A stretch of DNA of 64,000 bases from an uncultured virus (IMG/VR IMGVR_UViG_3300031133_000283) (IMGVR_UViG_3300031133_000283); one strand, 5' to 3'. Positions 43-21,688 are shown, numbered from the stretch's first letter. Made by a program: numbers and translations. The notes: generated by a model from the letters alone, not told the origin.

Positions 43-1086
43 ATGATGACTGAACCTGCAAATGCGCTTATTCCACAAGTGAATGAACGAACGGTGTGGT
101 CATATATCATTACTGGATATGATATTGGCTATCTTATATGGCTTGAATCTATCGTAAAAAGTAAAGTTTTCTCGCTCCCATTTTCTTCTCGGCGGTTAGC
201 AAGAATCCATCAGACTGCGAATGATAAAAGCTTAGAAAGCCCTAGTGACAAACTTGCTTTGGCGACTGTTACTGGTGTTATAGGTGCGTTGGTAGCAGCA
301 ATTGCAGTTGTTACTGCAGATGCAACTGCAGCAACAACTTTCCATACTGAATTACCAACTTGGGTTAACGCTTTGGGTGGAACTACGATTATAGCGGCAG
401 GTACCTTAGGAATCAATCCTTATTTTTCTCATAAAAAGAATAAGTTCCAAGCTCTAGAAAACAAAATCGCTGAAAAGCTTACTACAAGTATTCAGCTTTG
501 GCTTTTTGCCCAGATGGACTATGAGGCAAAGATTTCTCATGAGACTTCTAAGAAGATTATCTTAGAGATGATTGGTAAAGCGCCTTTTATCAATTTTACA
601 GATGTAACTGGTGTCAAGTATATTCTTGCCCAGAATGAAAACAATGGTGGATATGAATTAACAGTTACTAAAAAAGCTGATAACAACAAATCTTCTATAA
701 AACATATCCCTAGGCTTTCAAAAGATGTTCGGAAAAATTTTGCTCTTCCTGCTACCATCCCAACGAAAGCTAATCAGCTCCGTGAACGTATTGAGTCTCG
801 TGTTGACATGTTATCAGGGTTTGCTTTGAACGTTGAAACTGAACATGCAGTTGCTCGCATCGCTTCGGACATGCGGGAAGCTTTACAGTCACACGAGAAA
901 CTTTATACGTTGACTTCTGGACGTAAAGGTGCAAAAAACCTTGTGAACGTGCTGACTATGTTGGATGGAGAGCTTTCTCATTTGATTGAGCAGGAGTCTG
1001 AGCAGGTTGTAAAAGAACTGGTCGTACAAGAGAATTATGTAAGTGCACGTCAGGGAAACGATTTGTCCCTGTCAGCAGGTAAATGA
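43..1086 (+). CDS. Membrane protein, paralog family A (2 TM + W-x-x-x-x-(R)Y/FxD domain + C-terminal XpaC/KlaA-like helical domain)
   Basis: Two hydrophobic segments, then QLWLF...FTDVTGVKYIL and a C-terminal ETEHAVARIASDMREAL...LVVQENYVSARQ shared with downstream ORFs. Confidence 0.75.
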   Translation: MMTEPANALIPQVNERTVWSYIITGYDIGYLIWLESIVKSKVFSLPFSSRRLARIHQTANDKSLESPSDKLALATVTGVIGALVAAIAVVTADATAATTFHTELPTWVNALGGTTIIAAGTLGINPYFSHKKNKFQALENKIAEKLTTSIQLWLFAQMDYEAKISHETSKKIILEMIGKAPFINFTDVTGVKYILAQNENNGGYELTVTKKADNNKSSIKHIPRLSKDVRKNFALPATIPTKANQLRERIESRVDMLSGFALNVETEHAVARIASDMREALQSHEKLYTLTSGRKGAKNLVNVLTMLDGELSHLIEQESEQVVKELVVQENYVSARQGNDLSLSAGK

Positions 1087-1721
1087 TGAAGGCCAAAGAT
1101 ATAGTTATGCATAAACAAATGAGTGATGTATCGCAAATTGCTGAAGAGTTCAAAATGTCTGAGGCGAGTATAAAAACGTGGTTATACACCATGAAATCTG
1201 GGAAAACCAGATTCAAGACAGTTGTACCTTTTGCGCGCTTAGATAAGATGAATGCAGCGGCAAATACAATGAGTGACGAGCGTGAATTCAATTTGAACGT
1301 TTTCTACGCTGCTATGGGAGTACTACTGGGTTTGATTGTAGACGGTATAACCGTATTTATTTTTGGGAAGTCTATTGATCGTATCTGGTTTCCTTCTACC
1401 TTGATTCTGCCAGGTCTTATTGGTAGCTTTGCTTGGATACCTTTTTACGCAATACATAGGAAGAAGAAGGTTAGGCTTCAAGAAGCAGTAATGAATGTTA
1501 CTGAAGATGCGTTGTTAGGTTGGTTGAAGTCTCGCTACAACGTGTCAGTTAATGACGCTGAGATAGATGCTCTTGTACACTTGATGACAGTAAAAATACC
1601 TGATGGCTTATTTAATGATACTTCTGGTAATACGTGGAGGTTGAAGTCAGAGAGAAATACTTCTGAGTATTCTTTGGAAGCTCACTGGCTTTTGTACAAG
1701 AGAATGAACACAGTAAGCTAA
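1083..1721 (+). CDS. Membrane protein, family A, lacking the C-terminal helical domain
   Basis: 2 TM, GWLKSRYNVSV, FNDTSGNTWRL, then stop; overlaps the end of the previous gene. Confidence 0.7.
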   Translation: MMKAKDIVMHKQMSDVSQIAEEFKMSEASIKTWLYTMKSGKTRFKTVVPFARLDKMNAAANTMSDEREFNLNVFYAAMGVLLGLIVDGITVFIFGKSIDRIWFPSTLILPGLIGSFAWIPFYAIHRKKKVRLQEAVMNVTEDALLGWLKSRYNVSVNDAEIDALVHLMTVKIPDGLFNDTSGNTWRLKSERNTSEYSLEAHWLLYKRMNTVS

Positions 1722-1759
1722 CACAGTTTTACTGAAATAATTTTGATGTGTAAATATGA

Positions 1760-2875
1760 TTGGAACATGCAGTAATGGCTGAATATAGCACCCGTGCAAT
1801 TGAACTTGCACAGCAACTTCGTGATAAGGCTGAACTGAATATAAGTCAGCGTTCAACAGCTGTTGTTACTGCTTATGATCCAATCATGAAAAAGCATAAA
1901 AAGCAACCTGTTGTTCCTGCTGAGGATGTTGCCTACTGGCATGAACGCATGGCTTCGGGGCGTGAACGCTTCACGCCAGTGGTAGAAAAGTATTTTGGAA
2001 GCGACGCTAAAGCGCAAACTACATCTTTGACTTTAGCAAATAGCTTTGGGTTGGGTACCTTTTTCGGAATGGTAGGATTGCCAATTAGTGCGATTGCAGC
2101 AACTGTGAGTGAGATTTATTTCAATACGGGAGCTGAAGCCTTTGTTCCTATTTTGGTAGGTTCTTTTATTGCTATTGGATTTGGTTGGCAACCTTTTTTT
2201 ATTACGAAAGCAAAGAAAGCCCAGTATTTTTATCAGCAATTACTCACCCATACAAGTCAAGGCTTAGTCAGTTGGATGCAAACAAGGTATGGACTTACCC
2301 TCTCGCATCAAGAAGCTAACGTAGTTGCAGACGCTGTTTTAGGTTTAGACCGTGAAATTACTTTCACTGATGCAGCTCAAAAAAGCTGGCTTTTGAAGTT
2401 AGATAAGAAATCTGAGGAATATCAGGTGGAAGAAATTCCAGCAGCTACTAAAAAGCTTACCAAGAGTAAAAAGAAGAAATCCCAGCAGTTGAGTCTTTCT
2501 AAAGATGTTACTTCCACTAAGTTTGTCGCCTTGCAAGGTGAAGCTGGAAAAGTGTTTACTCAAATTGAAACACATTTTAGCCAGCTGGCTCAGCTATCTT
2601 TACATGGTGAAAAAGCTCATGTTCTCACGCGAGTAACAGATGATGTGCGGGAAGTTATTAGCGCGTATGAGCGGTTGCAGGTTTTGAGTGCGGGAGCGGA
2701 TGGAGAGAAAGAGCTTGTCCGAGTACTGAACCTTTTAGATGATGAGTTAGTCCAAATTATTCAAGATGAGATTAGCATTGTACGTGGGGTCTTAGTTTCC
2801 CATGGTGATTATGTGCAAGCTCGTCAAAAGAACGGTTTACAACTTCCTGCATCCTCCCCAAATGCTCCTTTCTGA
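1760..2875 (+). CDS. Membrane protein, family A (start may be ATG 1775)
   Basis: 2 TM, SWMQTRYGLTL, FTDAAQKSWLL, C-terminal EKAHVLTRVTDDVRE...SHGDYVQARQ. Confidence 0.75.
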   Translation: MEHAVMAEYSTRAIELAQQLRDKAELNISQRSTAVVTAYDPIMKKHKKQPVVPAEDVAYWHERMASGRERFTPVVEKYFGSDAKAQTTSLTLANSFGLGTFFGMVGLPISAIAATVSEIYFNTGAEAFVPILVGSFIAIGFGWQPFFITKAKKAQYFYQQLLTHTSQGLVSWMQTRYGLTLSHQEANVVADAVLGLDREITFTDAAQKSWLLKLDKKSEEYQVEEIPAATKKLTKSKKKKSQQLSLSKDVTSTKFVALQGEAGKVFTQIETHFSQLAQLSLHGEKAHVLTRVTDDVREVISAYERLQVLSAGADGEKELVRVLNLLDDELVQIIQDEISIVRGVLVSHGDYVQARQKNGLQLPASSPNAPF

Positions 2876-2917
2876 ATAGAGGCCATCTGTTAGGAATCTT
2901 CTGTAAGGGAGAAGGAA

Positions 2918-4300: not shown

Positions 4301-4352
4301 ATACAGTACAGGAGCGTCTGGTCAGGTTATCAACACCTGCATGAACAAGAAT

Positions 4353-4432: not shown

Positions 4433-5503
4433 ATGAACGACTCTCAAATTACTGATCTGGTAGCTGTCTCTAAAAACATCAGCTCAAAAGAGCTTGCTTT
4501 TAGGGCAGAAGCGCAAAACTGGTTGAATAGGATGAGTCTGGGATTTGAGCCTTTCAGACCTCTTATTACTTCCAATCAATCACAATCATTAATAAAAAGA
4601 ACTCACTTTATGGGCGCGCTTGCTCTCTGGACCTATCCGAGCGCACCCGTAGGTGCGGCTGCAGGGTTAGCTACTTTTGTGCAAACAGGAAAAGAATTCT
4701 TCTTAGCTGAACCTGGTTTAGTTGTTTTGGGCTTAGCGGGATTTATTGCAGGCGCTGTTACTCTGATCGGTGTCCCTTTGGGTAAGCTAACTCAACATAA
4801 GAGTAATAAGAAATATACAGAGGTGTATCTTATTACGAGACGAGGCTTGAAGAACTGGTTGAAAGCTCGTTATGACATTGAAGTATCCAAGGGGCAGCTT
4901 GACAAGCTGATGGACTACCCGAGTATTCATGCGAATGTATACGGAGAGGACACTTCCAGCTACGGAATACAGTTCGTTGATGTCGATGGCTTGAAATTGG
5001 TTCTGAATACGAATGAAAATAATTCAGAAGGCTGGAATGTTACCGCTTACAAAGAGGATAAAGTAGAAGAACCGATTGAGGCGGAACGAGTCTCATCGTT
5101 AGAAGAACTCACTACGAAGGTTGTTCTACCTGGGGAAGCTAACACCATCTTTGGAAGTATCAGTAATCGAGTCTCTCAGCTTGAACAGTATAGTTTAGAA
5201 ACAGAAGCTTCTCATAATATTCTTCGTATTGTTCAGGATGCTCGTGAAGCAGTAGCTACATACAGCAAACTGGAAGTTCTGGGCGAAGCTGAAACTGGGT
5301 TGACTGATTTGGTAGAAGTTCTTTCCATTCTCAATGAGGAGCTTTTGGCCATTGTTCGCAAAGAAGCATCTGATGTGCGGAACGATTTGTTAGTACAGAA
5401 AAGCTATCTTCGTTCTCGCCAGTTGGAATCCGGGCTGTATCCAAAACTTGGTTTACAGTTGAATGCACGTGAGGTAGAGAAAACTGAGGTTGCACATGAC
5501 TGA
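4433..5503 (+). CDS. Membrane protein, family A
   Basis: 2 TM, NWLKARYDIEV, FVDVDGLKLVL, EASHNILRIVQDAREA...LLVQKSYLRSRQ. Confidence 0.75.
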   Translation: MNDSQITDLVAVSKNISSKELAFRAEAQNWLNRMSLGFEPFRPLITSNQSQSLIKRTHFMGALALWTYPSAPVGAAAGLATFVQTGKEFFLAEPGLVVLGLAGFIAGAVTLIGVPLGKLTQHKSNKKYTEVYLITRRGLKNWLKARYDIEVSKGQLDKLMDYPSIHANVYGEDTSSYGIQFVDVDGLKLVLNTNENNSEGWNVTAYKEDKVEEPIEAERVSSLEELTTKVVLPGEANTIFGSISNRVSQLEQYSLETEASHNILRIVQDAREAVATYSKLEVLGEAETGLTDLVEVLSILNEELLAIVRKEASDVRNDLLVQKSYLRSRQLESGLYPKLGLQLNAREVEKTEVAHD

Positions 5504-6548
5504 GTTAGCACCAAATAACATTGCTGAGAGGGAGAAGCGACAGAATGCTCTTATTGAACAAATTATTGAACTTACTTCTACGAGTGACAACGTGGAACGG
5601 CTCGGTAAAGGTGCTTACGCACTCGACATAGTAAATAAAGAGCAATGGCTGAAAACTGTTGAAAATCAATCAAATTTTACTCCCATTATTTTACCTGAAC
5701 GCACTATCAAGCTTGCTGACAGTGAAAATAAATATATGGAAAGAATCGTAACAACAGCTGTCCTAACAGGTCTCACAGGTTTGTTTGGTACTTTTATTAG
5801 CTCGACAGTATTTATCCCTCATGAATCTTTGGGCTTAGTATATGCTTTTGTCGGTTCACCAATTGTAGGGGTTCTCTCTTTCTTTGGAATTTGTCTTCCA
5901 GCAGGGCGCTTTAGCGATAGGACTGCTATCCTCTACGGAGTAATCAATATTGTTGCACAAGGCTTCCAAAAATGGGCATTGACACAGCATCAATTAAATT
6001 TGTCAATAGAAGAAGCCCAACAAGTTGTCACGAAGTTACTCTACTCTGGTTCTCGTATTGAGGCAGACTGTGTAATTGAGAGAGAAAATCAAAACTACGT
6101 ATTTTACTGGGACAAGGATAATAAAAATGTCAAGTGTGTAAAATCAAAACGGCACACTCAATCTTCTCCTAACTTACATGCTCCTGTGTTAGAAACAGTA
6201 GAAACGAAGGAACCCATAGCTTTACCTTCTGATATCCAATCAGCTTATTCGGCTGTGCTTACAGACACAAACCTGCTCACTGCAACAGATTGGGCTGATG
6301 AAGCGAATCATATTAGTGACCAACTTAAAACAGCAGCGAATGACTACCGTAAAATTGCTCACCTGGATGATGAAGGGTTAGCCGCGCAGAAACTGATGAC
6401 AGTTGTATCCTTACTACAGGATGATGTGAAATCTGTGAAACGCAAAGTTCTTGAAGCTGGTTTAGCTGATTTGGATATTCATCAAGAGTATCTTATTGCC
6501 CGACAGAAGCTTCAAGGAACTGCGCATCCTATTCAACTTGAAAACTGA
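5496..6548 (+). CDS. Membrane protein, family A (divergent)
   Basis: ATG 5496 after gaggt; 2 TM; KWALTQHQL; C-terminal EANHISDQLKTAANDY...LDIHQEYLIARQ. Confidence 0.7.
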   Translation: MTELAPNNIAEREKRQNALIEQIIELTSTSDNVERLGKGAYALDIVNKEQWLKTVENQSNFTPIILPERTIKLADSENKYMERIVTTAVLTGLTGLFGTFISSTVFIPHESLGLVYAFVGSPIVGVLSFFGICLPAGRFSDRTAILYGVINIVAQGFQKWALTQHQLNLSIEEAQQVVTKLLYSGSRIEADCVIERENQNYVFYWDKDNKNVKCVKSKRHTQSSPNLHAPVLETVETKEPIALPSDIQSAYSAVLTDTNLLTATDWADEANHISDQLKTAANDYRKIAHLDDEGLAAQKLMTVVSLLQDDVKSVKRKVLEAGLADLDIHQEYLIARQKLQGTAHPIQLEN

Positions 6549-6623
6549 GTTTCTGTAAGCTCTTACTTGTAAATCTTGTCGAAGAACTGATAAGACTTAT
6601 ATACACTACGAGCAGGAGGATGC

Positions 6624-7070
6624 ATGGGTGTGCGTAATAGATATAAAACTGGTATAGCGTTAGTAGCAGCTCTAAGTATTATGGCTATGCTATCTGGATG
6701 TACTCCTGGAAAAGGTTTAACTCCGCTACCAGATAAAGAACGATATCAGTTTATCAATGAAGTCAAAGATGATTTGGATTACAAGTCTGCTGGAAAAGTT
6801 GTTTCTGAACGCTATGATAATAATGATGGTGTTTTTAACCCATCATTTTTTGTTGTGGAGTTACAGGGTGCTAAAAGCTTTGATAAGCTCTCGCAAAAAG
6901 TTAAAAAACTCTCTAATAATAAATGCCATTCTTCTCCTCGGCCTGCTACTGGGGAACAAACCTGGTGCACGATTGGGCAAGTTAGTGTAAAAGTTTTTAG
7001 AGAGAATGTTCAAACTGACAATGTTAGATTGAGCATATCTGATTCTTTGAGTGGAAGAGTGAGCGACTAA
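6624..7070 (+). CDS. Putative lipoprotein
   Basis: SD aggagg; basic N-terminus, hydrophobic stretch and lipobox LSGC. Confidence 0.7.
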   Translation: MGVRNRYKTGIALVAALSIMAMLSGCTPGKGLTPLPDKERYQFINEVKDDLDYKSAGKVVSERYDNNDGVFNPSFFVVELQGAKSFDKLSQKVKKLSNNKCHSSPRPATGEQTWCTIGQVSVKVFRENVQTDNVRLSISDSLSGRVSD

Positions 7071-7082
7071 CTGAATAATGTC

Positions 7083-7121
7083 AAAAGCGGGCAATGCTTT
7101 CCTGATGCATTGCCCGCTTTT
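7083..7121 (+). terminator. Intrinsic terminator
   Basis: aaaagcgggcaatgc / gcattgcccgctttt, 15-bp stem. Confidence 0.75.
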
Positions 7122-7184
7122 ATGGTATCTTGTACTCATGATGAAACTATTCAATAATAGTAACCGAGAGGATCGACTTTCCTG

Positions 7185-8300: not shown

Positions 8301-8332
8301 GCTCAACAAGAACTATATTTCTGCGCTGTTTT

Positions 8333-9634
8333 GTGGTACCCTTGCAAGAACAACGCTTATCAAAGGATGAAATTTTGAGCACAGAGCTTGATCGGTTAGA
8401 CCAGAAAGTAACTTCTCTTACTGGTACGCTCAATGATGCCAAAACCATTCAGGAATGGACTGATCGCACTATTGATGGGAGCACTCTACTCTCACCTGGA
8501 ACAGATCAAGATATTGTTCCGTATGTAAAAGCTTCTTATAATTTTCGACGGAACCCTCATACAACAATTCCATTCCTGTTAGGTGGAGGTATTGGGATAT
8601 ATACTTACATGGTATTGGGAATCAATTATCTGGAAATGATACTGTTGACACTCGGAGTTTGCATTTCCTCAGGTTCTTTACTGCAATCATTTTTCTGGTC
8701 ACGTTCAGATGCAAAAAAACAGCAAAAAACTCTGGAGGCAAACCTTGAGAACGTTGTAGATGGATGGCTATATGAGCGATACAAGTTGCAGGTATCTCCT
8801 TTTACGAAAAAGAAAATTATTCGTAACCTGTTGGCGTACGACGCTAGAACATTCAAGTTTAAAGCTTTGGGTTCTGTTACTGCTCGTATGAGCTGTAACA
8901 AAAGAGGCTGGTTTGTACATGACATTAAATCTGGTAGCATTCTTGTTCCATCAGTTGATGATAACTTGGTCCGATTTGCTCTACGAAAATATGAGAGCTA
9001 TCAGAAGGTTCAGGAGAGTCGTTATAACCGTGAGCTTATTGTGCAGAAAGCAAAACAGCGTCAAGAAAAAGAACAAATGATTCGTGATGGTCTTGCAAAA
9101 GCTGAGGCGTATGCGAAAAACAACAAGAAGCCTGCTGTTCGGAGCTATGAGGACAAAAATAAGCAGGATGAAACTCTGCGCTCATATCAGCAAGCGCGAA
9201 TCGATGAACTAACTCACCGTAATCATGAGCTAACAAAGCGACTACACGAAACGACTCCTCCTAAATCTCCTGCCAAAGACGTTGCTACAACGGAGAAAGC
9301 TTTACCAGCAAAGGTTGCTTCTGCGCTTAATGCCTTGCAGAAGCGTCTGAGTGTTCTAACGGAGCTGCAGTTGGATACTGAGTCAACTCATGTCATGGAA
9401 CGCATTCAGAACGAATCAAAGGATGCCGTGGATGTTTTCAAGCAATTGCAAAGACTGAACCGTGAGACGCAAGCAATTGCCGAAGTCCTTGCAGTGCTGA
9501 ATGGCTTAGTGTCTGATGCTGACATGCTTTTGGATAATGAGGCAAACAAGCTGAAAAACAAACTCGTCACTTCGGAAACTTTTTTGAAAGCGACTCGTAA
9601 CTCTGCACTACGTTTGGAGAAGCCTTCTCAATGA
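8333..9634 (+). CDS. Membrane protein, family A, with extra coiled coil
   Basis: 2 TM, GWLYERYKLQV, LDTESTHVMERIQNESKDA...TSETFLKATR. Confidence 0.72.
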   Translation: MVPLQEQRLSKDEILSTELDRLDQKVTSLTGTLNDAKTIQEWTDRTIDGSTLLSPGTDQDIVPYVKASYNFRRNPHTTIPFLLGGGIGIYTYMVLGINYLEMILLTLGVCISSGSLLQSFFWSRSDAKKQQKTLEANLENVVDGWLYERYKLQVSPFTKKKIIRNLLAYDARTFKFKALGSVTARMSCNKRGWFVHDIKSGSILVPSVDDNLVRFALRKYESYQKVQESRYNRELIVQKAKQRQEKEQMIRDGLAKAEAYAKNNKKPAVRSYEDKNKQDETLRSYQQARIDELTHRNHELTKRLHETTPPKSPAKDVATTEKALPAKVASALNALQKRLSVLTELQLDTESTHVMERIQNESKDAVDVFKQLQRLNRETQAIAEVLAVLNGLVSDADMLLDNEANKLKNKLVTSETFLKATRNSALRLEKPSQ

Positions 9635-10821
9635 GTCCGAAACATAATGCCAATGAACTTGTTCTGAGGAAAAGGAACGGGTCTAAACAAGTTCTTGTGC
9701 AAAACATCCAATCGTGGAAAACAAAGGTTTATTCAGGAGAAGTCTTACTGAAATCTCCGTTGGATGATAAAGATTCTAAACAGCTTGACCTGACTGCGGC
9801 TAAACGTTCTAACATGACTGGCTTGGCAGCAGCTATTGCCTTTGCCTTACCTGGATATTTCTTCCTGCCTGGTGATTGGATTCTCTTTGGAGGTTTCGCA
9901 TTCGGAAGCGTCGGAGCGGCGACAGGGCGACTGCTTGGGCAGAAAGCGTTTTTCAGTAAAAGCGACCGTTTGCAGAAAGCAAATCTTGAACTTCTGAGTA
10001 ATGTACTGCCTCATTGGTTGGCTGCTCGCTATGATGGGTTACAGGTTGGTCCAGCGATGAAACACAACCTTCTCCGAGCATTAGTAACAGGTTCAGGCTA
10101 CGGAACAGTGACTACCTCTGATAACAAGTATGCTCGTTGGGAAATAGTAGACAAAGGTCTAATCATTACAGAGGTAGCTGATCCAAGTAATGACAGTCTG
10201 GTATATGGCTATGTTCCCACTCAGGACTATAACTTAGGTTTACGTTCCAAGGTTGGAGCTCGTTTCAAGAAAGGGGTTACTGATAAGAACCCTTTCGATG
10301 CTGGAAAAGTGCAACCAGGCGCTATTTCGTTTACTAAGCCTGGACCTGTGGATTCTCCTGCAACTCAGGATAATGCACCTATTGTCAATATTCCAAAGCC
10401 AGTCAATGTTTCTATGTTAGACAAGGAAGACACATTACCAACTGTAGCCTTGCCTATCAAACCTTTTATTGCAGTAGAGTTACCCGATGAGTTAGGTGAT
10501 AGCTGGGAAGAACTGCAGGTTAAGCTGTTGACCGTCAAGAAACTCGCATTAGATACTGAGGATCAGTATTACGTTACTCGGGCACAATCTGAATCTAAGG
10601 AAGCTCTTGGTGTATACCAGCAGCTGGAAAAATTAGGAGCAGCTGATACAGAAGCTGCTGATAGCTTTTTATCAGTGCTACAACGTTTGACCAAAGAGCT
10701 GGATTCTCTTGTTAATAAAGAGATAGCCCACTTGAAGAATCAGTTGAAAACTCAACAAGCGTTCCTGGAAAGTGTTGAATCTCGCATTATCTTGGATAAG
10801 AATCCTGACACTCAGGAGTAA
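9631..10821 (+). CDS. Membrane protein, family A
   Basis: 2 TM, HWLAARYDGLQV, LDTEDQYYVTRAQSESKEA...TQQAFLES. Confidence 0.72.
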   Translation: MSPKHNANELVLRKRNGSKQVLVQNIQSWKTKVYSGEVLLKSPLDDKDSKQLDLTAAKRSNMTGLAAAIAFALPGYFFLPGDWILFGGFAFGSVGAATGRLLGQKAFFSKSDRLQKANLELLSNVLPHWLAARYDGLQVGPAMKHNLLRALVTGSGYGTVTTSDNKYARWEIVDKGLIITEVADPSNDSLVYGYVPTQDYNLGLRSKVGARFKKGVTDKNPFDAGKVQPGAISFTKPGPVDSPATQDNAPIVNIPKPVNVSMLDKEDTLPTVALPIKPFIAVELPDELGDSWEELQVKLLTVKKLALDTEDQYYVTRAQSESKEALGVYQQLEKLGAADTEAADSFLSVLQRLTKELDSLVNKEIAHLKNQLKTQQAFLESVESRIILDKNPDTQE

Positions 10822-10904: not shown

Positions 10905-10910
10905 GGTGCC

Positions 10911-11465
10911 ATGAATGGTTTTGATATCTTCTCCCTTATAGTAGGCGCAGTAGCTGTGATCGGTACAGGCATTTTTAGCGCAACTACCAACAGACCTGGG
11001 TTGGAACTTCTTATCAACAAGGTTGTTGCTGGTAGAAAGCAGAAGTATCTGCATGAGAATTTCCAAGCTGTTGTAGAGGCAGGTCGTTCAGCTGATCTGG
11101 ATTTGACAAAAGTCTCGTATGCTGACGTAAGCATTCTTTTGAACACTCTGTCCTCTTTGCATGGAGATAAAGTCCAGAGTTCCATTCAAACTATTGAAAA
11201 AGCTGTGGAAGCGGAAGAGTTTGCTTTCCCTGTTCCTCGTGTTGACTTCCTAAAACGAACGTTCATTCTACTGGATGGGCTGGCTTCGTTTGCGCAACGG
11301 AGTAAGAACTCTGAGAAGCTCGGTTCATACGAGCTGCAGGCATTAGAGAAAGCTGAAACAAAATTGGATAAGCAGGTTGAAAGCTTGCGTGAAGAGTCTG
11401 ACCGTACTGCTGAGTCAGCTATTGGAAAACGAGGCGTTCGTAGTCTCTTAGGAAGGTCTAACTGA
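10911..11465 (+). CDS. Single-TM helical hypothetical protein
   Basis: N-terminal hydrophobic segment; translationally coupled to the next ORF (TGATG). Confidence 0.6.
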   Translation: MNGFDIFSLIVGAVAVIGTGIFSATTNRPGLELLINKVVAGRKQKYLHENFQAVVEAGRSADLDLTKVSYADVSILLNTLSSLHGDKVQSSIQTIEKAVEAEEFAFPVPRVDFLKRTFILLDGLASFAQRSKNSEKLGSYELQALEKAETKLDKQVESLREESDRTAESAIGKRGVRSLLGRSN

Positions 11466-12052
11466 TGCTTACTCTTATCATTATAGGTACTGTCGTTTTT
11501 AGCGCCGCTTCACTGGTTTCGTTCCAGTTAGGGGAAACACGATATACGTTCAAGACAGCAAAAGAGTTCAATGCTCTTACTGCAAACCCAGTATATCGCT
11601 CTATTGCTTTACCTGCGGCTGCTGAGCGCAAGGCTCTTTCCTCAGGTGAAATTGAGGAGCCTGTCCTTGAAACTTCTGTGAACATGATGCAGGTTGAGAA
11701 ATACGTAGAATCTTCCTCTCTACCGTATGCTCTTCGCGGAAAAGCCACTCGTTTGATTGAACGCTTCAATTCTGTACCACGTTCAGGTTTGAGTATTGAA
11801 GACTCGCATGACTTAGATGTTGTTGGTGAGCAGCTGTTATCCGCTGTCCGCTTGTATGAAGCTCTACCTGAGGACAAACGCTCTAACCGTTCCGTTACTC
11901 GTGAACTGGATGAGCAGTTGACTATGTTGGATAACGTAATTTCCACTGTTTCTGATGACCAAGCGAATGAGGTCATGAAGCAGCTTCGTTCAGGAACCCA
12001 GTTCTTGAAGGATAAGTTCATGCAGCGTCAACGTATGCAGTTGAAGAAATAA
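11465..12052 (+). CDS. Single-TM protein with XpaC/KlaA-like C-terminal domain
   Basis: LSIEDSHDL...AVRLYEALP...EQLTML...SGTQFLKDKF, parallel to 21218..21688. Confidence 0.65.
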   Translation: MLTLIIIGTVVFSAASLVSFQLGETRYTFKTAKEFNALTANPVYRSIALPAAAERKALSSGEIEEPVLETSVNMMQVEKYVESSSLPYALRGKATRLIERFNSVPRSGLSIEDSHDLDVVGEQLLSAVRLYEALPEDKRSNRSVTRELDEQLTMLDNVISTVSDDQANEVMKQLRSGTQFLKDKFMQRQRMQLKK

Positions 12053-12956: not shown

Positions 12957-13535
12957 ATGGCTCTTACACTTCAGAAGGGTGCCAACCTCTCACTTACCAA
13001 GGAAGCCCCGGGTCTTACCCGTGCGGTTGTTGGTCTTGGTTGGGATGCTCGCAGCACTGATGGTAGCGCGTTTGACCTTGACGCTTCCGCAATTCTTGTG
13101 GGCGCTGACGGCAAGGTCCGTGGCAATACTGACTTCGTGTTCTACGGTCAGACTCAGGACGCTGACGGCTCTGTCGTCCACCAGGGTGACAACCTGACAG
13201 GTGAGGGCGACGGCGATGACGAGCAGATTGTGGTTGACCTGACTAAGGTCCCTGCTGACGTTGAGCGCGTTGTATTCACTGCTTCCATCTACGATGCAGA
13301 CCAGCGCAGCCAGTCCTTCGGCCAGGTCCGCAATGCGTTCATCCGCGTTGTTGACGGTGGCAACGACACTGAGGTTGTTCGCTACGACCTCTCCGAGGAC
13401 TACGCTACTGAGACTGCTCTGGTCTTCGCTGAGCTGTACCGTAACAACGGTGACTGGAAGTTCAAGGCTGTCGGTCAGGGCTATGCAAATGGCCTTGCTG
13501 GTATCGCTGGTGACTTCGGTGTCCAGCTCGGCTAA
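12957..13535 (+). CDS. terD: TerD family stress protein
   Basis: [38 protein letters not shown] aggag. Confidence 0.95.
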
Positions 13536-13668: not shown

Positions 13669-14637
13669 ATGAGTTCAGAAATTGTGCGCTTTGAGAAAAA
13701 AGAAGTTCTGATCCCAGAGAGTAATCTACGTTCTGAGACAGCCCCAAATGGTTTGTACCAGACTCCTGTAAGTTACGCACTTGAAGAAAAAATCTACGTA
13801 ACAGAAAAACTAACGAATAATCATGTTTGGCAATTTTATACAATAGGTTCAATGGCTTTTGCTGGCCCTGGCGGAATGGCTTTTGCGATACCTGCAATCG
13901 ATGGCAATCCTATTTTGTTCTTGGGGACAATAACACTTGCTGCTGTTGCTAGTCTCGTGACAGTCCTTACCATAAAGAAAAGTAATAAAGCGGAACGTAT
14001 TGATAAAACTACTGGAGAAATCAATACGAAAGCATTACTGAAATGGCTGAAGAATAGGTACGATATCTCTGTTACTACTCGAACAGCAGTCCAACTTGCA
14101 ACATATGTTGATGTAGAAAAGAAAAACTTCGGGCTGTTATGTCATTTCTCCGATGTGGACAATGTAATTTATGCGTTACATAACGATGTTCGTAATCGTA
14201 GGTATGTTTTGAAGGTAGATGACACTCCTACTGATGCTTCTATTGAATCTATTGTCAAATCAGCTCCTGCTATTAGTGCAGATTCTTCTCAATACAAGTC
14301 TATTTCTTATTTATCCGAAGATTCTCTCAACTTGGCAAAAACTATTACTTCTACTATTGAGCGCATTCGCAATACGGGTTTGACAACAGAACAGCAGTAT
14401 GAAGCCGAACATATCCTGTCTGAGTTGAAGAAAATATGTGATATTCGTCGTCAGATTTTTGATATCAATCCAGAAAAAGATGAGTCCCCTTTGGTGAAAG
14501 CGACCTTAGATGACCTGTCTACTCGTGCGACAAAAATTATGGACGAACAAATTTCTGGATTAGAGAAAGAGCTGCTTATTCAGAATGACTACATTCACAG
14601 CAGGGCAGATGTAACTTCCTTGCAGGTTGAAAAGTAA
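13669..14637 (+). CDS. Membrane protein, family A (duplicate pair, copy 1)
   Basis: KWLKNRYDISV, FSDVDNVIYALHND, LTTEQQY...LLIQNDYIHSR; ATG 13669 preferred over the track GTG 13648. Confidence 0.75.
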   Translation: MSSEIVRFEKKEVLIPESNLRSETAPNGLYQTPVSYALEEKIYVTEKLTNNHVWQFYTIGSMAFAGPGGMAFAIPAIDGNPILFLGTITLAAVASLVTVLTIKKSNKAERIDKTTGEINTKALLKWLKNRYDISVTTRTAVQLATYVDVEKKNFGLLCHFSDVDNVIYALHNDVRNRRYVLKVDDTPTDASIESIVKSAPAISADSSQYKSISYLSEDSLNLAKTITSTIERIRNTGLTTEQQYEAEHILSELKKICDIRRQIFDINPEKDESPLVKATLDDLSTRATKIMDEQISGLEKELLIQNDYIHSRADVTSLQVEK

Positions 14638-14648
14638 GACAAAATGCA

Positions 14649-14676
14649 ACCTATGGTAGAATTCTTTACCATAGGT
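14649..14676. repeat. 10-bp inverted repeat between the duplicated genes
   Basis: acctatggta-gaattctt-taccataggt. Confidence 0.55.
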
Positions 14677-14705
14677 CAGATGATGTGAAAGAAGGCTTGT
14701 CGTTG

Positions 14706-15701
14706 ATGAGTAAAGAAGTAGAACGCTTTGACAAAAAGAATGAAATAGCTGTTGATGAGTCAATGTTGCGGTCAGAGACAGCTTCCAATGGTTTGTATCA
14801 GACCCCTATTGATTCTTCTACCTACACCGAGTTGGAAAAGCAAGCACCTAAGACGAGTATGACCAACTTCGCACCAGTCCTTCTACCTGCGGGAGCAATG
14901 GGTGTACTAATAAGTGTTCTTCAACTATTCTATCCTCCATCTGATCCTGGTGCAGTAGCTACTTGGATGTTGGGTTGGGCTTCTGCTGGAACAGGTGCCG
15001 CAGGACTCACCTCAGGATATATGTTTAAAGCATATACCAAAGAAAACAGGAATAAAGCCTTCAGGCTTCTTATTGCTCGGCACAATGCTGATGCTTTAAG
15101 ACTTTGGTTGAAAAAACGTTATTCTATTTTTATCACTGATGAAGTTTTCGCAGAGCTGGCCTGGTATGTACGTAAAGAAAATGAAAAAACTGGATTACTT
15201 ATTCGTTTCTACGATGTAGACAACGTTTTATACGAGTTACATAACGATAAGTACAACCGTCGTTATGTAACCAAAGTTGATTCGACTCCACAGGATTACA
15301 AGACACCAGTCACTCCTGTAAAAGAGGATGTAGAAGTAGCTACTATTACACAAGAGTATTTGTCAGAAGACTCCAACCATCTTGTTGAACGCATTACTAC
15401 TATATCCCAAAAACTCCGTGATAGTGCATTGACAACAGAGCAAACACATGAGCTTGACCGCATCGTTGATGAGACGAAAAAAGTATGTGAAATTCGCGCA
15501 GGTATCTTTGCCTTGGACCCAGAACAGGAAGAATCTGGTTCAGTTCGTAAAACGCTAGCTTCTCTGCAAAACCAGATTCAGGCTCTTCTCCGAGTGCAGA
15601 TTGCGGAGTTGGAAAAGGAGCTAACAGTTCAAAATACATATGTCACAGCTAATGATGTGCACAATAATTTAGCAATTGAGAAAGTAGGGGCTTCTTTATG
15701 A
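14706..15701 (+). CDS. Membrane protein, family A (duplicate pair, copy 2)
   Basis: LRSETASNGLYQTP, LWLKKRYSIFI, FYDVDNVLYELHND, LTTEQTHEL...LTVQNTYV. Confidence 0.75.
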   Translation: MSKEVERFDKKNEIAVDESMLRSETASNGLYQTPIDSSTYTELEKQAPKTSMTNFAPVLLPAGAMGVLISVLQLFYPPSDPGAVATWMLGWASAGTGAAGLTSGYMFKAYTKENRNKAFRLLIARHNADALRLWLKKRYSIFITDEVFAELAWYVRKENEKTGLLIRFYDVDNVLYELHNDKYNRRYVTKVDSTPQDYKTPVTPVKEDVEVATITQEYLSEDSNHLVERITTISQKLRDSALTTEQTHELDRIVDETKKVCEIRAGIFALDPEQEESGSVRKTLASLQNQIQALLRVQIAELEKELTVQNTYVTANDVHNNLAIEKVGASL

Positions 15702-16600
15702 GTTGGTTTAGTTCAGACACGAAAGAAAGAAAAGAAATAGCCAGACAACAAGAGCTGGCACAGCAGGCAAAGATTGAAAAGCAGAAATCTATCCAAAGGG
15801 CACAGCAAGTGCAATGGATGCGTTCTAAAACAGCTGCTGATTTTATTGAACTCTTTAGTATGCTTGAGCAGCAAGTAAAATCAGTTGTTGGAGAACCTTC
15901 TGAGTTAGAGGGAGATTATAAACGTTCTTATAGAGCTTCTTTAGATGGCCTTACTCAAATACGCAAGGCTTTCTTTGAAATTGATAGAGGATTGCTCAAT
16001 GAACATCAACTTGCCTCCTTGTACACCTTGCTGAGTCAAGTTCTCCCAAACGCAGTTAGCAAGTTACAACAGTCCGCCATTGAACATACTGTTCATGGAG
16101 CCTGGGAGTACTATGGCGTAAAAGCATCATTTTCTAATGCGTTTACTTCATTTATCGCAATACGAAATTCTCAGATTGGGAAAAACCCTATCACTCTACC
16201 TAAGACAGAAGTTGTTGGTGATACCGTTTTTCCAGCCTACGAAATTGCTGATTCTAGTATTACAGAACCACTAGCACGTATTGGTAAATTGTGGAGGCAA
16301 GCTTCCGAGAAAAAGAATACTGTTGAGAACGAGTACTTTTTGGAGCAGGTAGTATCTTCTTATCTTCCAGAAGCTTACCGCTTGTATAGCACATTCCAAT
16401 TAGCCCCCGCAGAGTTGCAAGAGTCAGCTGCAACGATATTTGTCGAGCAGTTAGAACTCATTGAGCGTCATTTAGTACATATTCTTCGCACATATATGGA
16501 ACAGAACCTTGTTGCTATGCAAAACCATATGGATTTCTTGAAGCAGAAAACTTTGGATTCTGCTGAGAAGCCTGAACTATTGGAGATTGCTGCTACATGA
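15698..16600 (+). CDS. Soluble XpaC/KlaA-like protein, possibly two tandem domains
   Basis: SQVLPNAV and SSYLPEAYRLY motifs; C-terminal EQLELIE...NHMDFLKQK. Confidence 0.6.
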   Translation: MSWFSSDTKERKEIARQQELAQQAKIEKQKSIQRAQQVQWMRSKTAADFIELFSMLEQQVKSVVGEPSELEGDYKRSYRASLDGLTQIRKAFFEIDRGLLNEHQLASLYTLLSQVLPNAVSKLQQSAIEHTVHGAWEYYGVKASFSNAFTSFIAIRNSQIGKNPITLPKTEVVGDTVFPAYEIADSSITEPLARIGKLWRQASEKKNTVENEYFLEQVVSSYLPEAYRLYSTFQLAPAELQESAATIFVEQLELIERHLVHILRTYMEQNLVAMQNHMDFLKQKTLDSAEKPELLEIAAT

Positions 16601-17976: not shown

Positions 17977-18001
17977 TTTTTCGGCTAAAACTATTTGGAA
18001 G

Positions 18002-18030
18002 TTGCATCAGCCGAGAATCTATGTTAGAGT
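18002..18030 (+). promoter_or_regulatory. SigA-type promoter of terZ-terD
   Basis: TTGCAT-17-TAGAGT with extended TG. Confidence 0.65.
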
Positions 18031-18065
18031 GTACTCATTACATAAACTTGAAAGGTTTTGATTAG

Positions 18066-18653
18066 ATGTCAATCTCACTTACCAAAGGTAATACCGTTTC
18101 ACTTGCTAAGAAGGACGGTTCTTCTCTGACCAAGGTTACTCTCGGTCTTGGCTGGGACGCTGCTTCCACAAAGAAGGGCCTCTTCGGCGCTGTTCTTGGC
18201 GGGTCCATTGACCTTGATGCCTCAGCTCTGCTGTATGACGGTCAGGGTCGCAATACCGAGATTGTTTACTTCAGTCACCTGAACTCAAAGGACGGCTCAG
18301 TCCGACACTCTGGTGATAACCTGACAGGTGCTGGTAATGGTGATGACGAGCAGATTGTCGTTGACCTGACCCGTGTTCCTGCTGATATTCAGCACATTGT
18401 GTTTACCATCAACTCCTACTCTGGCCAGAAGTTCGACCAGGTGAAGAATGTTTTTGCTCGCGTCGTTGATTCTTCCGACCGCAACAACACCGAGATTGTT
18501 CGTTACAACCTCGCAGAGTCTGCTTCAAAGACCGCAAACATCATCGCCAAGGTGAGCCGTCAGGGTTCAGGCTGGGCATTCACCGCTATTGGTGAGTACG
18601 CTGATGGACGCACTGCAAACAAGCTAGTTGACACTGCACGCAACTTCCTGTAA
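18066..18653 (+). CDS. terZ: TerD family protein, TerZ-like
   Basis: MSISLTKG..VSL..K, GLGWDA, IDLDASA, HSGDNLTGAGNGDDE, VFTINSYSGQKF. Confidence 0.85.
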   Translation: MSISLTKGNTVSLAKKDGSSLTKVTLGLGWDAASTKKGLFGAVLGGSIDLDASALLYDGQGRNTEIVYFSHLNSKDGSVRHSGDNLTGAGNGDDEQIVVDLTRVPADIQHIVFTINSYSGQKFDQVKNVFARVVDSSDRNNTEIVRYNLAESASKTANIIAKVSRQGSGWAFTAIGEYADGRTANKLVDTARNFL

Positions 18654-18713
18654 GCTGTCCACAGAACAACAAACAATTTAGATATACAACGTAGAAAGAA
18701 GTGAATTCAAATT

Positions 18714-19292
18714 ATGGCTATTAGTCTTAGCAAGGGTGGAAACGTCTCCCTCACAAAGGAAGCCCCGAATCTCCGAGTAGCTCGTGTTGGTCTTGGTTGG
18801 GACGTTCGCACCACCGCTGGTGCCGAGTTCGACCTTGACGCTTCCGCTCTTCTCCTTGCCGCTACGGGTAAGGTTCGCAACGAGAAGGACTTCGTGTTCT
18901 ATGGCGCTCTTCGTCACCCGAGTGAAGCTGTCATCCACCAGGGTGACAACCGTACTGGTGACGGCGATGGTGACGATGAGGTTATCCTCATTGACCTCCC
19001 TTCAGTCGAGGTAGATGTTGAGAAGATTGTCATTTCCGTGTCAATCTACGATGCTGATGCTCGCAGGCAGTCCTTTGGTCAGGTTCGTAACGCTTACATC
19101 CGCCTTGTTGATGAGACAACTGGCGTTGAGGTTGTTCGTTATGACCTTACCGAGGAGGCAGGCAATGAGACTGCTCTGAACTTCGCTGAGCTGTACCGTC
19201 ACAACGGTGAGTGGAAGTTCCGCGCTGTTGGTCAGGGGTACTCAACAGGTCTCGCTGGCCTTGCCACTGACTTCGGCGTTCCCATCGGATAA
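18714..19292 (+). CDS. terD: TerD/TerE family protein
   Basis: GLGWD, FDLDASA, HQGDNRTGDGDGDDE, ELYRHNGEWKFRAVGQG. Confidence 0.92.
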   Translation: MAISLSKGGNVSLTKEAPNLRVARVGLGWDVRTTAGAEFDLDASALLLAATGKVRNEKDFVFYGALRHPSEAVIHQGDNRTGDGDGDDEVILIDLPSVEVDVEKIVISVSIYDADARRQSFGQVRNAYIRLVDETTGVEVVRYDLTEEAGNETALNFAELYRHNGEWKFRAVGQGYSTGLAGLATDFGVPIG

Positions 19293-19320
19293 AGTTTTTT
19301 CAAAGTTTTTGCCGCCACGC

Positions 19321-19371
19321 ACTTCCTTTTCTCATGGACCTGTGTTATGATAGTCCATGAGAAAAGGAAGT
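19321..19371. promoter_or_regulatory. 19-bp perfect inverted repeat enclosing an extended -10 element upstream of telA
   Basis: acttccttttctcatggac-ctgTGtTATGATa-gtccatgagaaaaggaagt. Confidence 0.55.
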
Positions 19372-19418
19372 AAAATTCCTCAGAAAACGTAGTGCTTTTA
19401 GAAAGGCAACCAACCAAC

Positions 19419-20642
19419 ATGACAATGTTAACACCTCCTGAAGACAACCAGCCGCCGCTTCAGCTTTCAGTACCTGAGCCTGTTCAGGAAGTCCAGGAGG
19501 ACCAGGCCACAGGAATGATTCCTGCTGTTGAGCCGAGTCGTGAACTGGTCATCGGTAACCAGGCTAAGGGTTTTGTCAAAGACCTGAACAAAATCAATGC
19601 CAACTCCCCTGAGTTTGCTCAGAAGCTGAACGACGTTCAGACTCTGGCTCAGGCTGAGATTGTCAAGTCTGGTGTTGGCACCAGCCGTCTGTTGGAGCGT
19701 AAGTCCTCCTCCCTTTCAGGTGCAAAGAAGAACGGTGGCGATGCCACCGTGAAGGTTGCTGGAACTCTGTCAACCTTGCGTTCTACTGTTCAGGACCTGA
19801 CCCCGAACGCTGCTGACCTGACAGGTACACAGAAGTTCCTCTCCTTCCTTCCTGGCGGAAAGAAGATTCGCAAATACTTCCAGAAGTTTGAAACTGCTCA
19901 GGTGCAGCTTGATGAAATTGTCAAGTCTCTGATGTCTGGTCAGGACGAACTGATGAAGGACAACGCCGCTCTTCAGCAGGAGAAGAAAGAACTCTGGGAC
20001 ACCATGGGTGCGCTGAATGAGTACATTGTTTTCGCTAAGAAGCTGGACGATGAAATCACCACCACTATCCAGGACTTGAAGCAGGCTGGCCGTGTAGCCG
20101 AGGCTCAGACCATGGAAAGTGACATGTTGTTCGCTGTTCGCCAGCGTCGTCAGGACCTGATGACTCAGCTTGCTGTTTCTGTTCAGGGTTACATGGCTAT
20201 GGAGCTTGTTCGTAAGAACAACGTGGAACTCATCAAGGGTGTTGAACGCGCTCGTACCACAACCATTTATGCTCTGAAGACCGCTGTTGCTGTTGCTCAG
20301 GCCCTTGACACCCAGAAGCTGGTTCTTGACCAGATTGATGCTGTCAACGAGGCCACCAACAACACCATTGAGCAGACCTCTGTCATGCTCCGTCAGCAGA
20401 CTGGTCGTGTCCACGAGCAGGCCGTTAACTCTGGTGTCCAGGTTGCTGTCTTGGAGAAGGCGTTTGATAACATCTTCGCCACCATGGATGAGATTGAGGC
20501 ATTCAAGTCTCAGGCTAACAACACCATGGGTCAGACCATTGACAGTCTGGAAGTTCAGCTGGACCGTGCCAAGGGCGGTCTTGACCGTGCACGCGCACTG
20601 GAAGCCTCTGAGGCTGGCGCACCGAAGTCTATCTCCCGATAG
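19419..20642 (+). CDS. telA: Toxic anion resistance protein TelA (YaaN/KlaB family)
   Basis: YFQKFETAQVQLDEIVKSL..GQDEL.KDN, RQRRQDLMTQLAVSVQGYMA, NNVELIKGVERARTTT; ATG 19419 after gaaagg. Confidence 0.92.
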   Translation: MTMLTPPEDNQPPLQLSVPEPVQEVQEDQATGMIPAVEPSRELVIGNQAKGFVKDLNKINANSPEFAQKLNDVQTLAQAEIVKSGVGTSRLLERKSSSLSGAKKNGGDATVKVAGTLSTLRSTVQDLTPNAADLTGTQKFLSFLPGGKKIRKYFQKFETAQVQLDEIVKSLMSGQDELMKDNAALQQEKKELWDTMGALNEYIVFAKKLDDEITTTIQDLKQAGRVAEAQTMESDMLFAVRQRRQDLMTQLAVSVQGYMAMELVRKNNVELIKGVERARTTTIYALKTAVAVAQALDTQKLVLDQIDAVNEATNNTIEQTSVMLRQQTGRVHEQAVNSGVQVAVLEKAFDNIFATMDEIEAFKSQANNTMGQTIDSLEVQLDRAKGGLDRARALEASEAGAPKSISR

Positions 20643-20679
20643 TCTACTGTGTAAACAGTAGAAGCGGAGGTTGCCCCTG

Positions 20680-21198
20680 ATGGGAAAGATAGTTATTGTT
20701 CTCATCTTCCTGCTACTTGTTGTTGGATTTCTGGTTACAGTGTCCATGATGAGTCGCCGTAGGAAGAAGCAGAATGTAACCCTTTCCCCGATGGAAGCAA
20801 CCTCCGCTTCTGCATTAACAGGGTTGTTAGTGACCAGCCAGGTTACGTACTTGATGGAAAAATACGGCACTATTGCTACTGAGAAGTTTTCAGAAAATGC
20901 CAGTGAGAAGTTTTACTCAGTTCTGCGAGAATCTCGTGTTATTGCTGGAATGTATGAGAGTAAGCGTTTCCCTGATGATGCTGGAAGTGACTTACAAGCT
21001 TTATTAGGCCATTACATACCATCAACTATTGAGCTTGCTTTACGCTCCGAGAACCCTAAACTGGATGCTTCCTTAGCAGAAAGTTTCACACTTGCCCTCA
21101 ACAGACTTGACGAAACACGTCAACGTCTTGTATACTTAGATGAACAGCGCAAAGATGATGCTGAACAGGAACCCGAGTCTGCGGTTTCTGAAGAATGA
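20680..21198 (+). CDS. Single-TM XpaC/KlaA-like protein
   Basis: N-terminal TM followed by RRRKK; HYIPSTIEL motif; adjacent to telA; SD ggagg. Confidence 0.6.
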   Translation: MGKIVIVLIFLLLVVGFLVTVSMMSRRRKKQNVTLSPMEATSASALTGLLVTSQVTYLMEKYGTIATEKFSENASEKFYSVLRESRVIAGMYESKRFPDDAGSDLQALLGHYIPSTIELALRSENPKLDASLAESFTLALNRLDETRQRLVYLDEQRKDDAEQEPESAVSEE

Positions 21199-21217
21199 TT
21201 TTATTGTAGGAGATTTA

Positions 21218-21688
21218 ATGTTCAGTTGGTTCCGCAGGGACGATGATAACCTTGCTGTTAACCCTGCCAATATTTTGGCTCCGAAGCCGTTCCATGAGCA
21301 GATGCTTGAATGGATTGACGACCTTGATTGGTTTGAACGGGAATCATCAGGATTTGTTTCAACAAACGTGTTCTCTCGCCTTCGTGTTATCAACGATTTG
21401 CTTAGTGATGTAAACGAGTTCATCAAAAGATATAACATTCGCGCTGAGGAAGAGTACATCATCAAGTCCACCATTACTCAGTACATTCCTGATGCGTTGA
21501 ACATATTCAACCAGCTTCCTGCTCATGACCGTGCACCTGGGAGTGAAGCAGACCGTATGCTTTTAGACCAGTGCGATAACATTGAACGTAGCGTCCGTCA
21601 GCTTAATACGGATATGCATAACAGAGTCAAATCTGAACTGGCAACACAGACTCAGTTTGTTGAGGACCGTTTCAGCCACCAGGTTTGA
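21218..21688 (+). CDS. Soluble XpaC/KlaA-like TelA partner
   Basis: SD aggag, ATG 21218; TITQYIPDALNIFNQLP...ELATQTQFVEDRF. Confidence 0.65.
   Translation: MFSWFRRDDDNLAVNPANILAPKPFHEQMLEWIDDLDWFERESSGFVSTNVFSRLRVINDLLSDVNEFIKRYNIRAEEEYIIKSTITQYIPDALNIFNQLPAHDRAPGSEADRMLLDQCDNIERSVRQLNTDMHNRVKSELATQTQFVEDRFSHQV

Follow-up and report, generated by a model that had tools for sequence, protein, structure and literature searches.

An array of membrane proteins with a predicted TelA-partner domain beside the Ter/TelA cluster of a very large metagenomic element

Why would a mobile element line up a long row of related membrane-protein genes ahead of a single telA gene? The question is raised by a 64,000-nucleotide stretch of DNA from an uncultured virus in IMG/VR (IMGVR_UViG_3300031133_000283), hereafter the window, in which such a row starts at position 43 and runs into a cluster of terD and telA genes. 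TelA and other Ter genes have been tied for decades to resistance against tellurite, colicins, phages and membrane antibiotics, and a mechanism is lacking. An earlier note on this DNA, made by reading the sequence, had described eleven open reading frames (ORFs) of one architecture as XpaC/KlaA-like proteins amplified around one TelA, possibly as adaptors or sensors docking on it. The picture that emerges here retains most of that description and changes its family label. The array proteins form a new family, and their locus represents a Ter/TelA variant that is likewise new; as judged by profile comparison, the proteins end in the helical domain of a small protein encoded next to TelA.

The eleven ORFs, named here by their start positions (Table 1), all exist on the + strand, the ORF listing giving 5490, 13648 and 14685 for three that had been written as 5496, 13669 and 14706, which are alternative starts. 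They form one family in an all-against-all BLASTP of 27 window proteins, their common layout is visible in a MAFFT alignment, and a hidden Markov model (HMM) of their middle domain matches all 11 at E-values (E) of 1e-14 to 1e-28 among the 311 six-frame ORFs of at least 60 amino acids (aa) in the window, the next ORF coming at E 0.8. The single architecture proposed for them is thus confirmed, and so is the presence of a carboxy-terminal (C-) domain in all but 1083, which stops short and is followed by the next gene 38 nt downstream. When the same 311 ORFs are scanned with an HMM of that C-domain, built from the 10 full members (background from E 1.2), it also matches 11465 (E 6.4e-9), the TelA-adjacent 21140/21218 (2.7e-5) and 15698 (4.2e-3), three of the four further carriers that had been named. 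In hhalign comparisons, 11465 joins the array family (E 5.4e-7, probability 92%), and 15698 joins the TelA-partner family described below (15 sequences, E 9.4e-8, probability 94%), its match to the array being weaker (E 0.042). The fourth carrier, 20680 (ORF 20671), did not hold up: it falls within the HMM background (E 2) and gives hhalign values of 0.026 and 0.037, which leave its membership unsupported, as is that of 10911 (HMM E 7.6, hhalign E 0.28). The HMM and hhalign results together bring the window total to 13 tail-domain proteins plus the truncated 1083. Because one further full member and the C-domain of another are encoded within the 1,668 bases that precede the window on its parent contig, the array runs past the window's 5' end. 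Pfam gives no match above cut-off for any of the eleven ORFs, and 13 array or Ter-adjacent proteins have no match in PHROGs.

The array proteins consist, in order, of an N-terminal region, a hairpin of two transmembrane (TM) helices, a small alpha/beta domain with the pattern 'WL..RY…F.D', a disordered linker and a three-helix bundle. Hydropathy places the hairpin in the N-terminal third of all 11 members, and since lysines and arginines precede TM1 and follow TM2, with none in the hairpin loop, the positive-inside rule suggests that both ends are cytoplasmic. An AlphaFold2 model of 1760, computed from a 140-sequence alignment of the family (mean predicted local distance difference test score, pLDDT, 77.8), starts with an N-terminal helix and a short conserved helix (residues 54-66), continues with TM helices within residues 81-142 and a juxtamembrane helix (144-177), and then enters the three-stranded alpha/beta domain (183-225, strands at 199-225; pLDDT 93-97), which is separated by the disordered linker (230-245) from the terminal bundle (260-357, pLDDT mostly >90). 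Two residues assigned to the alpha/beta domain, W172 and Y177, are nearly invariant in the family.

The C-terminal domain of the array is homologous to that of 21218, the small soluble protein beside TelA. Compared by hhalign with a 10-sequence alignment of 21218-type partners, the array C-domains and the 140-sequence array family gave E 8.2e-5 and 1.1e-5, respectively, and with a 15-sequence partner family E 3.2e-7 and 1.3e-6 (the latter over 107 columns, probability 90.5%), that is, the match strengthens with deeper profiles. Alignments are collinear from end to end over 97-107 columns and share motifs; the three helices of the array tail (18, 25 and 46 residues) align with helices 2-4 of the partner (23, 23 and 45). 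Mutual profile matches between the C-domains and 21218, on which the earlier note had made its proposal depend, are therefore present, and the common domain stands. One could object that such a pattern is generic coiled-coil or helical composition without common descent, all the more since the PDB fold matches of the models are generic bundles and since the only PDB sequence matched by the A2 profile is a designed coiled coil (E 2.2e-4). However, reversed-alignment controls lose the match (E 0.11-0.37 overall; 0.28 and 0.23 against the 1.3e-6 above), so the signal is not one of helical composition, no other helical ORF among the 311 rises above background, and the collinearity and shared motifs also speak for common descent. 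We regard this objection as extremely improbable.

What, then, is the partner? Its family, assembled from eight metagenome proteins, a related virus and bacterial TelA loci, has the motifs Y-[IL]-P..L..Y..LP and F-[LV]..[RK]-F in common. Of 11 bacterial TelA loci, 9 have the partner downstream of TelA (Frondihabitans, three of four Sinomonas, Streptosporangium, three of four Chloroflexota, and Rhodomicrobium); the other two, in which it did not turn up, are L009, within 5 kb, and L017, whose contig ends ~1.2 kb after TelA. Five of the nine bacterial partners, from Streptosporangium, Chloroflexota and Rhodomicrobium, have an N-terminal 2-TM hairpin of their own, and the protein is soluble in Micrococcales, in the related virus and in the window. 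A 608-kb Curtobacterium plasmid has a 151-aa hypothetical protein between TelA and TerD (L004:10990-11445) that matches 21218 at E 3.2e-18. The gene order TelA-partner-TerD, which within the window applies to 21218 only, is the same in that plasmid, in the related virus (L001) and in loci L008 and L010-L012. A pattern scan of GTDB genomes with the 10-sequence partner alignment returned none. In the related virus, which has a complete 345-kb genome and is 64% identical to the window in TelA and 40-44% in DnaE, the partner is again the gene after TelA; the comparison of array size across related elements that the earlier note had suggested shows one partner gene and no array member there. The array expansion is therefore lineage-specific. 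Put together, the partner family occurs in anchored and free forms, the array being its anchored form in this lineage.

Two side observations concern these partner loci. Between TelA and the 2-TM partner, Chloroflexota and Rhodomicrobium have an ORF of 530-570 aa (L015 2964-4607, L018 6367-7956), which in Rhodomicrobium is a fusion of a solute-binding protein with a vWA domain and in Chloroflexota has no Pfam match. The closest annotated TelA proteins (51-54% identity) are on actinobacterial 'plasmids' of 546-754 kb that have the same Ter gene order and also carry NAPRTase, PRPP synthase, NUDIX, Thg1, tmk and SLT transglycosylase genes, a set reminiscent of jumbo phages.

A hairpin followed by a helical domain next to TelA immediately recalls XpaC, and the array proteins and 21218 might be diverged members of XpaC (PF10112) or of KlaA, as the label first given to them implied. 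B. subtilis XpaC and 20 relatives do show a 2-TM hairpin and then a helical domain, the array proteins match this form (a likeness of form, not evidence of descent), the genomic partner is TelA in both cases, and two XpaC-like clusters came out close to 1760 in a search by language-model features, with low scores (0.78 and 0.76) that make them leads only; PF10112 is found on 35% of the members of the second. Sequence comparison points the other way. PF10112 (cut-off 29.8 bits) matches no protein of the window. Tested with it, 21218, 11465, 15698, 20671, 10911 and the partners of the related virus and the Curtobacterium plasmid gave no match at E 10, in a run that matched B. subtilis XpaC at 225 bits (E 7.7e-67), and neither did any of the 140 array family members (E 0.01) or of three bacterial 2-TM partners (E 1). 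The profile comparison with XpaC that the earlier note had suggested, made with a shallow alignment of 20 sequences from Bacillaceae only (Neff, the effective number of sequences, 2.3-2.9), yielded nothing above control: hhalign values for the 140-sequence family, the partner family and the array C-domains were 0.014, 0.79 and 0.025 against XpaC and 0.14, 0.17 and 0.046 against reversed XpaC, the first of these being a collinear match of the last helices over 38 columns. Run over 120 XpaC proteins, the family HMM reached at best 13.5 bits, exactly as on reversed copies, and the partner HMM 9.8 bits versus 7.8. We consider membership in XpaC or KlaA very unlikely, and the 'XpaC/KlaA-like' label has been dropped as far as XpaC is concerned; what the two sides share is their form and their genomic partner. 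Very remote homology may lie beyond the reach of so shallow an XpaC profile. A 257-aa TM protein encoded upstream of TelA on a Vibrio plasmid is likewise unrelated to the array family and to the partner (hhalign E 0.11 and 0.12), and a tblastn search of plasmids with the window TelA found no IncP-type plasmid among 15 records.

Are these genes functional, and which part of the proteins changes? Ratios of non-synonymous to synonymous substitution rates (dN/dS) of 0.15-0.42 in all five array genes shared with a relative (L006, 86-93% identical), and of 0.08-0.54 against a sister contig (L007; one value undefined, dS being 0), indicate purifying selection and thus functional genes. Between related elements the proteins have a variable head and a constant tail. 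The C-domain is 91-100% identical in seven orthologue pairs; identity of the N-terminal plus TM part goes down to 73% in 1760, 86% in 5490, 63% in 8333 and 50% in 14685, and that of the middle domain to 74% in 1760, 77% in 4433, 86% in 5490 and 51% in 14685. In 14685 this is seen within a sister contig that is 98% identical, where the head is ~50% and the tail 95% identical. Dips in nucleotide identity coincide with heads (1748-2348, 4748-5048, 8348-8948 and 14233-15433), and there is another at the lipoprotein gene 6624. This pattern supports the proposal of an amplified partner domain that became attached to divergent membrane modules. Recombination tracts contribute to it as well: in the sister contig, tracts 14233-15433 and 15733-16333 are 46-88% identical, against 96-100% elsewhere, cover the tail of 13648, the head of 14685 and 15698, and look like recombinational cassette replacement. 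The gene at 6624-7070 encodes a small predicted lipoprotein (signal peptide ending LSGC) and is the most divergent gene between the relatives, with 62% aa identity to L006 and a replaced region in L007.

The family is by no means confined to this element. Among 1.84 billion representatives, a profile search detected 264 clusters at E <=0.001, 187 of them at 1e-10 and 41 at 1e-30. Nearly all outside sequences (156/162) have a BLAST match to window proteins at 1e-5, 4433 being the closest for 74 of the 156, and 15/162 are >=45% identical to a window protein. Three of the clusters of 20 representatives that were looked up have members on contigs of 828-883 kb, and contigs of 4.6, 23 and 85-97 kb bring together different family clusters, which means that arrays recur; the L006 relative has five syntenic members in 9.8 kb. 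A tblastn search with 4433 found no match in plasmid and phage collections, and in IMG/VR scans with six queries, 8333, 4433, P0168, P0158 and P0146 were without a match. The sixth query, P0182, had one (L020), which was rejected as weak and N-terminal only, none of the four HMMs matching it.

What might such proteins do? There is, we think, an even chance that the locus is a Ter/TelA stress or exclusion cluster in which the helical domain of TelA's neighbour has been duplicated and joined to inner-membrane modules that would dock on TelA. TelA binding, a sensing role and the biological use are what we infer. The bundle would be a constant docking module, which may attach directly to TelA, or else take the place of the soluble 21218 on it or compete with 21218 for it, and the N-terminal, TM and middle parts would serve as variable heads, through which TelA would be positioned or triggered at various membrane sites or upon various membrane insults. 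The partner gene of this lineage could have lost its 2-TM hairpin, the array then supplying membrane anchoring in many versions, and the likely use would be protection of the membrane of the infected or carrier cell, or exclusion of competing phages. Precedents for a functional link of this kind may be seen in E. faecium, where, according to a meeting abstract, the phenotype of deleting XpaC, a 2-TM neighbour of TelA, needs intact TelA (PMC6811118), and in Listeria, where an operon of XpaC-like and TelA-like genes is tied to nisin and tellurite susceptibility (PMC12791056). Jumbo phages carry Ter/TelA genes, for which a role against superinfecting phages and xenobiotics is proposed in the passages of an account devoted to them (PMC7824862).

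Several observations weigh against this docking proposal. The C-domains of the window paralogues are only ~22% identical to one another (the neighbours 13648 and 14685 are 39% identical as proteins), which is low for proteins sharing one surface of TelA. Two of the seven orthologue pairs lack variable heads (7185 is uniform, and 13648 has a diverged tail), and tract 14233-15433 spans the junction of two genes, taking in the tail of 13648 and the head of 14685, so the contrast of head and tail may partly reflect recombination tracts instead of domain-specific selection. No TerC/DUF475 is present among 54 window ORFs scanned, and the window therefore does not hold a complete canonical Ter system. 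Lastly, gene context for the array family comes from the L005-L007 lineage only (L005 being the parent contig of the window), so the linkage to TelA rests there.

A different reading is a TelA-independent multigene membrane family, serving remodelling of the host membrane, exclusion of rival phages or assembly, that shares an old helical domain with the partner and lies close to the Ter genes by common regulation or chance. The divergence of the tails fits it, as does their distance in sequence from the partner, which the C-domain HMM reaches at the value given above and the deep array-family HMM does not reach at E 0.01. So do the 264 family clusters of unknown context, the related virus with its Ter cluster and no array, and the non-family genes interspersed in the array (2918, 3833, the lipoprotein gene 6624 and 12059). 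The layout of the locus tells against it. The stretch 43-27526 is a single co-directional (+) block of ~30 genes, with gaps of -14 to 133 nt and start/stop overlaps at eight junctions. A terD gene and the partner-type gene 15698 are found inside the co-directional array, which was counted in favour of a physical linkage of the array to the Ter/TelA cluster, and the domain in common is exactly the one conserved beside TelA in several bacterial phyla. On balance, TelA independence seems to us somewhat unlikely.

The same helices allow yet another arrangement, in which the C-domains would associate among themselves and with the soluble partner instead of with TelA, giving a mixed membrane-associated lattice or coat that the soluble 21218 and 15698 would cap or regulate. 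Bundles of three or four helices whose lengths match are typical oligomerisation modules and many co-expressed paralogues share one tail type; such a lattice, on the other hand, leaves the tie between TelA and the partner across phyla unexplained, and we judge it decidedly unlikely.

If docking on TelA is retained, its boldest extension would be that, in a ~880-kb phage-like element of plant surfaces, TelA's single membrane partner has become a germline repertoire of at least 13-16 receptors with variable heads and constant tails, each head for a different insult or competitor and all signalling through the docking bundle to one TelA/TerD effector. Neither Ter systems nor phage-encoded exclusion has so far been described as following such a receptor-family logic. 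In this full form the proposal is unlikely. If the heads are indeed sensors, this would be a rare receptor repertoire encoded by a mobile element. Whatever the heads do, the analysis (i) establishes a family of TelA-linked partners, extending from Actinomycetota to Chloroflexota, for which Pfam has no model, (ii) shows this partner in membrane-anchored and soluble forms, (iii) points to one lineage in which its helical domain has been multiplied onto diverse membrane modules, (iv) gives concrete candidate binding pairs, one TelA versus ~13 tails and one soluble partner, and (v) offers a natural experiment for finding out where in the system specificity resides.

The features of the locus are collected in Table 1.

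Table 1. Genes of the array and of the adjoining Ter/TelA cluster (positions in the window)
Feature	Position	Strand	Evidence
Array member, 347 aa	43..1086	+	C-domain HMM E 7.6e-36, mid-domain HMM 1.5e-23, deep family HMM 1.1e-59
Truncated array member, 212 aa: N-terminus, TM hairpin, mid domain	1083..1721	+	Mid-domain HMM 2.3e-24, no C-domain match, family HMM positions 18-198 only
Array member, 371 aa	1760..2875	+	HMMs; AlphaFold2 model
Array member, 356 aa	4433..5503	+	HMMs
Array member, 352 aa	5490..6548	+	HMMs
Array member, 371 aa	7185..8300	+	HMMs
Array member, 433 aa, long insertions in mid domain and linker	8333..9634	+	HMMs, alignment
Array member, 396 aa, long linker	9631..10821	+	HMMs, alignment
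Short relative, 195 aa: N-terminal TM helix (residues 2-20) and array-type C-domain	11465..12052	+	HMM, hhalign
TerD inside the array	12957..13535	+	PF02342 E 7e-84
Array member, 329 aa	13648..14637	+	HMMs
Array member, 338 aa	14685..15701	+	HMMs
Soluble protein, 300 aa, last ~85 residues a TelA-partner-type domain, no TM helix	15698..16600	+	hhalign
Array member, 303 aa	16597..17508	+	HMMs
TerD, first of two	18066..18653	+	PF02342 E 1.7e-50
TerD, second of two	18714..19292	+	PF02342 E 2.7e-81
TelA, the sole one in the window	19392..20642	+	PF05816 E 1.6e-75
Single-TM protein, 175 aa (TM residues 7-25), between TelA and partner	20671..21198	+	Membership unsupported
TelA-adjacent partner, 156 aa, soluble	21218..21688	+	AlphaFold2 four-helix bundle, pLDDT 86.4
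TerD (21785), conserved 270-aa protein, C-C-bond lyase, PRTase-TRSP-StiP-PELOTA fusion, HAD hydrolase (26726)	21785..27526	+	Pfam

The Ter cluster itself was read correctly from the start as having a single TelA, and its Pfam assignments above cut-offs are TerD, TelA, C-C_Bond_Lyase, PRTase_2/TRSP, StiP and PELOTA_1. TelA found no relative among PDB sequences (best E 0.23) and no tblastn match in the phage collection. The array genes are 1.9-19 kb upstream of TelA in the co-directional block, and only 20671 and 21218 are TelA-adjacent. The 20671 gene is absent at the matching position in the related 345-kb virus, and the homologue of 22255 is conserved across bacterial and viral loci. At 24234-26726, PRTase_2-TRSP and StiP-PELOTA make up one 830-aa ORF, which corresponds to two genes (441 and 387 aa) in the related virus. 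In that virus (L001 7576-8667) and in the Curtobacterium plasmid (L004 6292-7392), DUF475/TerC is directly upstream of TerD-TerD-TelA; the array and a 136-aa gene, 17566, occupy the corresponding side of the window's Ter cluster.

As for the element as a whole, the window comes from a metagenome contig of 878,612 bp, and sister contigs of 883,042, 881,636 and 828,331 bp have the same genes as the window. To our knowledge, the largest phage genomes are of ~735 kb, which this element would exceed if it were a phage. The 64-kb window holds replication, recombination and sigma-factor genes and no capsid or terminase gene (Pfam, PHROGs); the ~880-kb element may be a phage, a plasmid or some other kind of element. 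By megablast, window 1-24000 has no match among phages and 18000-24000 none among plasmids. Matches of the array region 4433-12052 to DNA sequencing runs (20 rows from 16 studies) are mostly to phyllosphere, leaf-litter and plant metagenomes, the best of which may be the source sample; no matching RNA sequencing run is listed. Beyond the Ter genes, DnaE is a single 1209-aa ORF (27798-31427) that matches two open frames ~1.6 kb apart in the related virus (query residues 6-439 and 423-1131), a 1214-aa protein (32476-36120) has seven IPT/TIG repeats (PF01833, E 1.2e-81), and two sigma-70-like genes and one type IV prepilin-peptidase-like gene are on the - strand (45100-45885 and 51265-53273) in mostly plus-strand surroundings. 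Finally, a 621-aa ORF (56705-58570) combines an exonuclease-type PHROG match with Hint/intein domains and adjoins RecX (58575) and SSB (61403).

How does this system compare with those already known? On plasmid RK2, likewise a mobile element, the KlaA-KlaB(TelA)-KlaC genes group a TelA homologue with small partners and are linked to host-lethality and tellurite phenotypes, and in B. subtilis both xpaC and yaaN are said to appear in a paper on the sigma-W regulon. Literature searches on TelA, XpaC, YaaN, Ter genes in phages and giant phages of the phyllosphere revealed no account of such an array, a 2012 paper on Ter systems (Mol Biosyst 8:3142), which may bear on novelty, being outside the scope covered. 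The Ter systems of jumbo phages, as presented in the relevant passages of Iyer et al. (2021, Viruses 13:63), likewise bring together TerD, TelA, PRTase and HAD on a very large phage-like genome, and the passages of that account concerned with them (PMC7824862) do not mention a paralogue array. The XpaC-TelA (YaaN) pair of Bacillota (PF10112 with PF05816) likewise places a 2-TM protein with a cytoplasmic helical domain next to TelA, but XpaC is a single gene upstream of telA, whereas here there are at least 13 genes and a separate soluble partner downstream of TelA, and the array proteins have an additional alpha/beta middle domain and a long linker. A further comparison is with the unnamed family of TelA-downstream partners of actinobacterial-type Ter clusters. 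In bacteria and in the related virus, the partner is a single gene, soluble or with its own 2-TM hairpin, and unlike the array proteins it is never fused to the WL..RY middle domain in the 13 loci examined; 21218 is a member of this family, and the array tails and 15698 carry the same domain.

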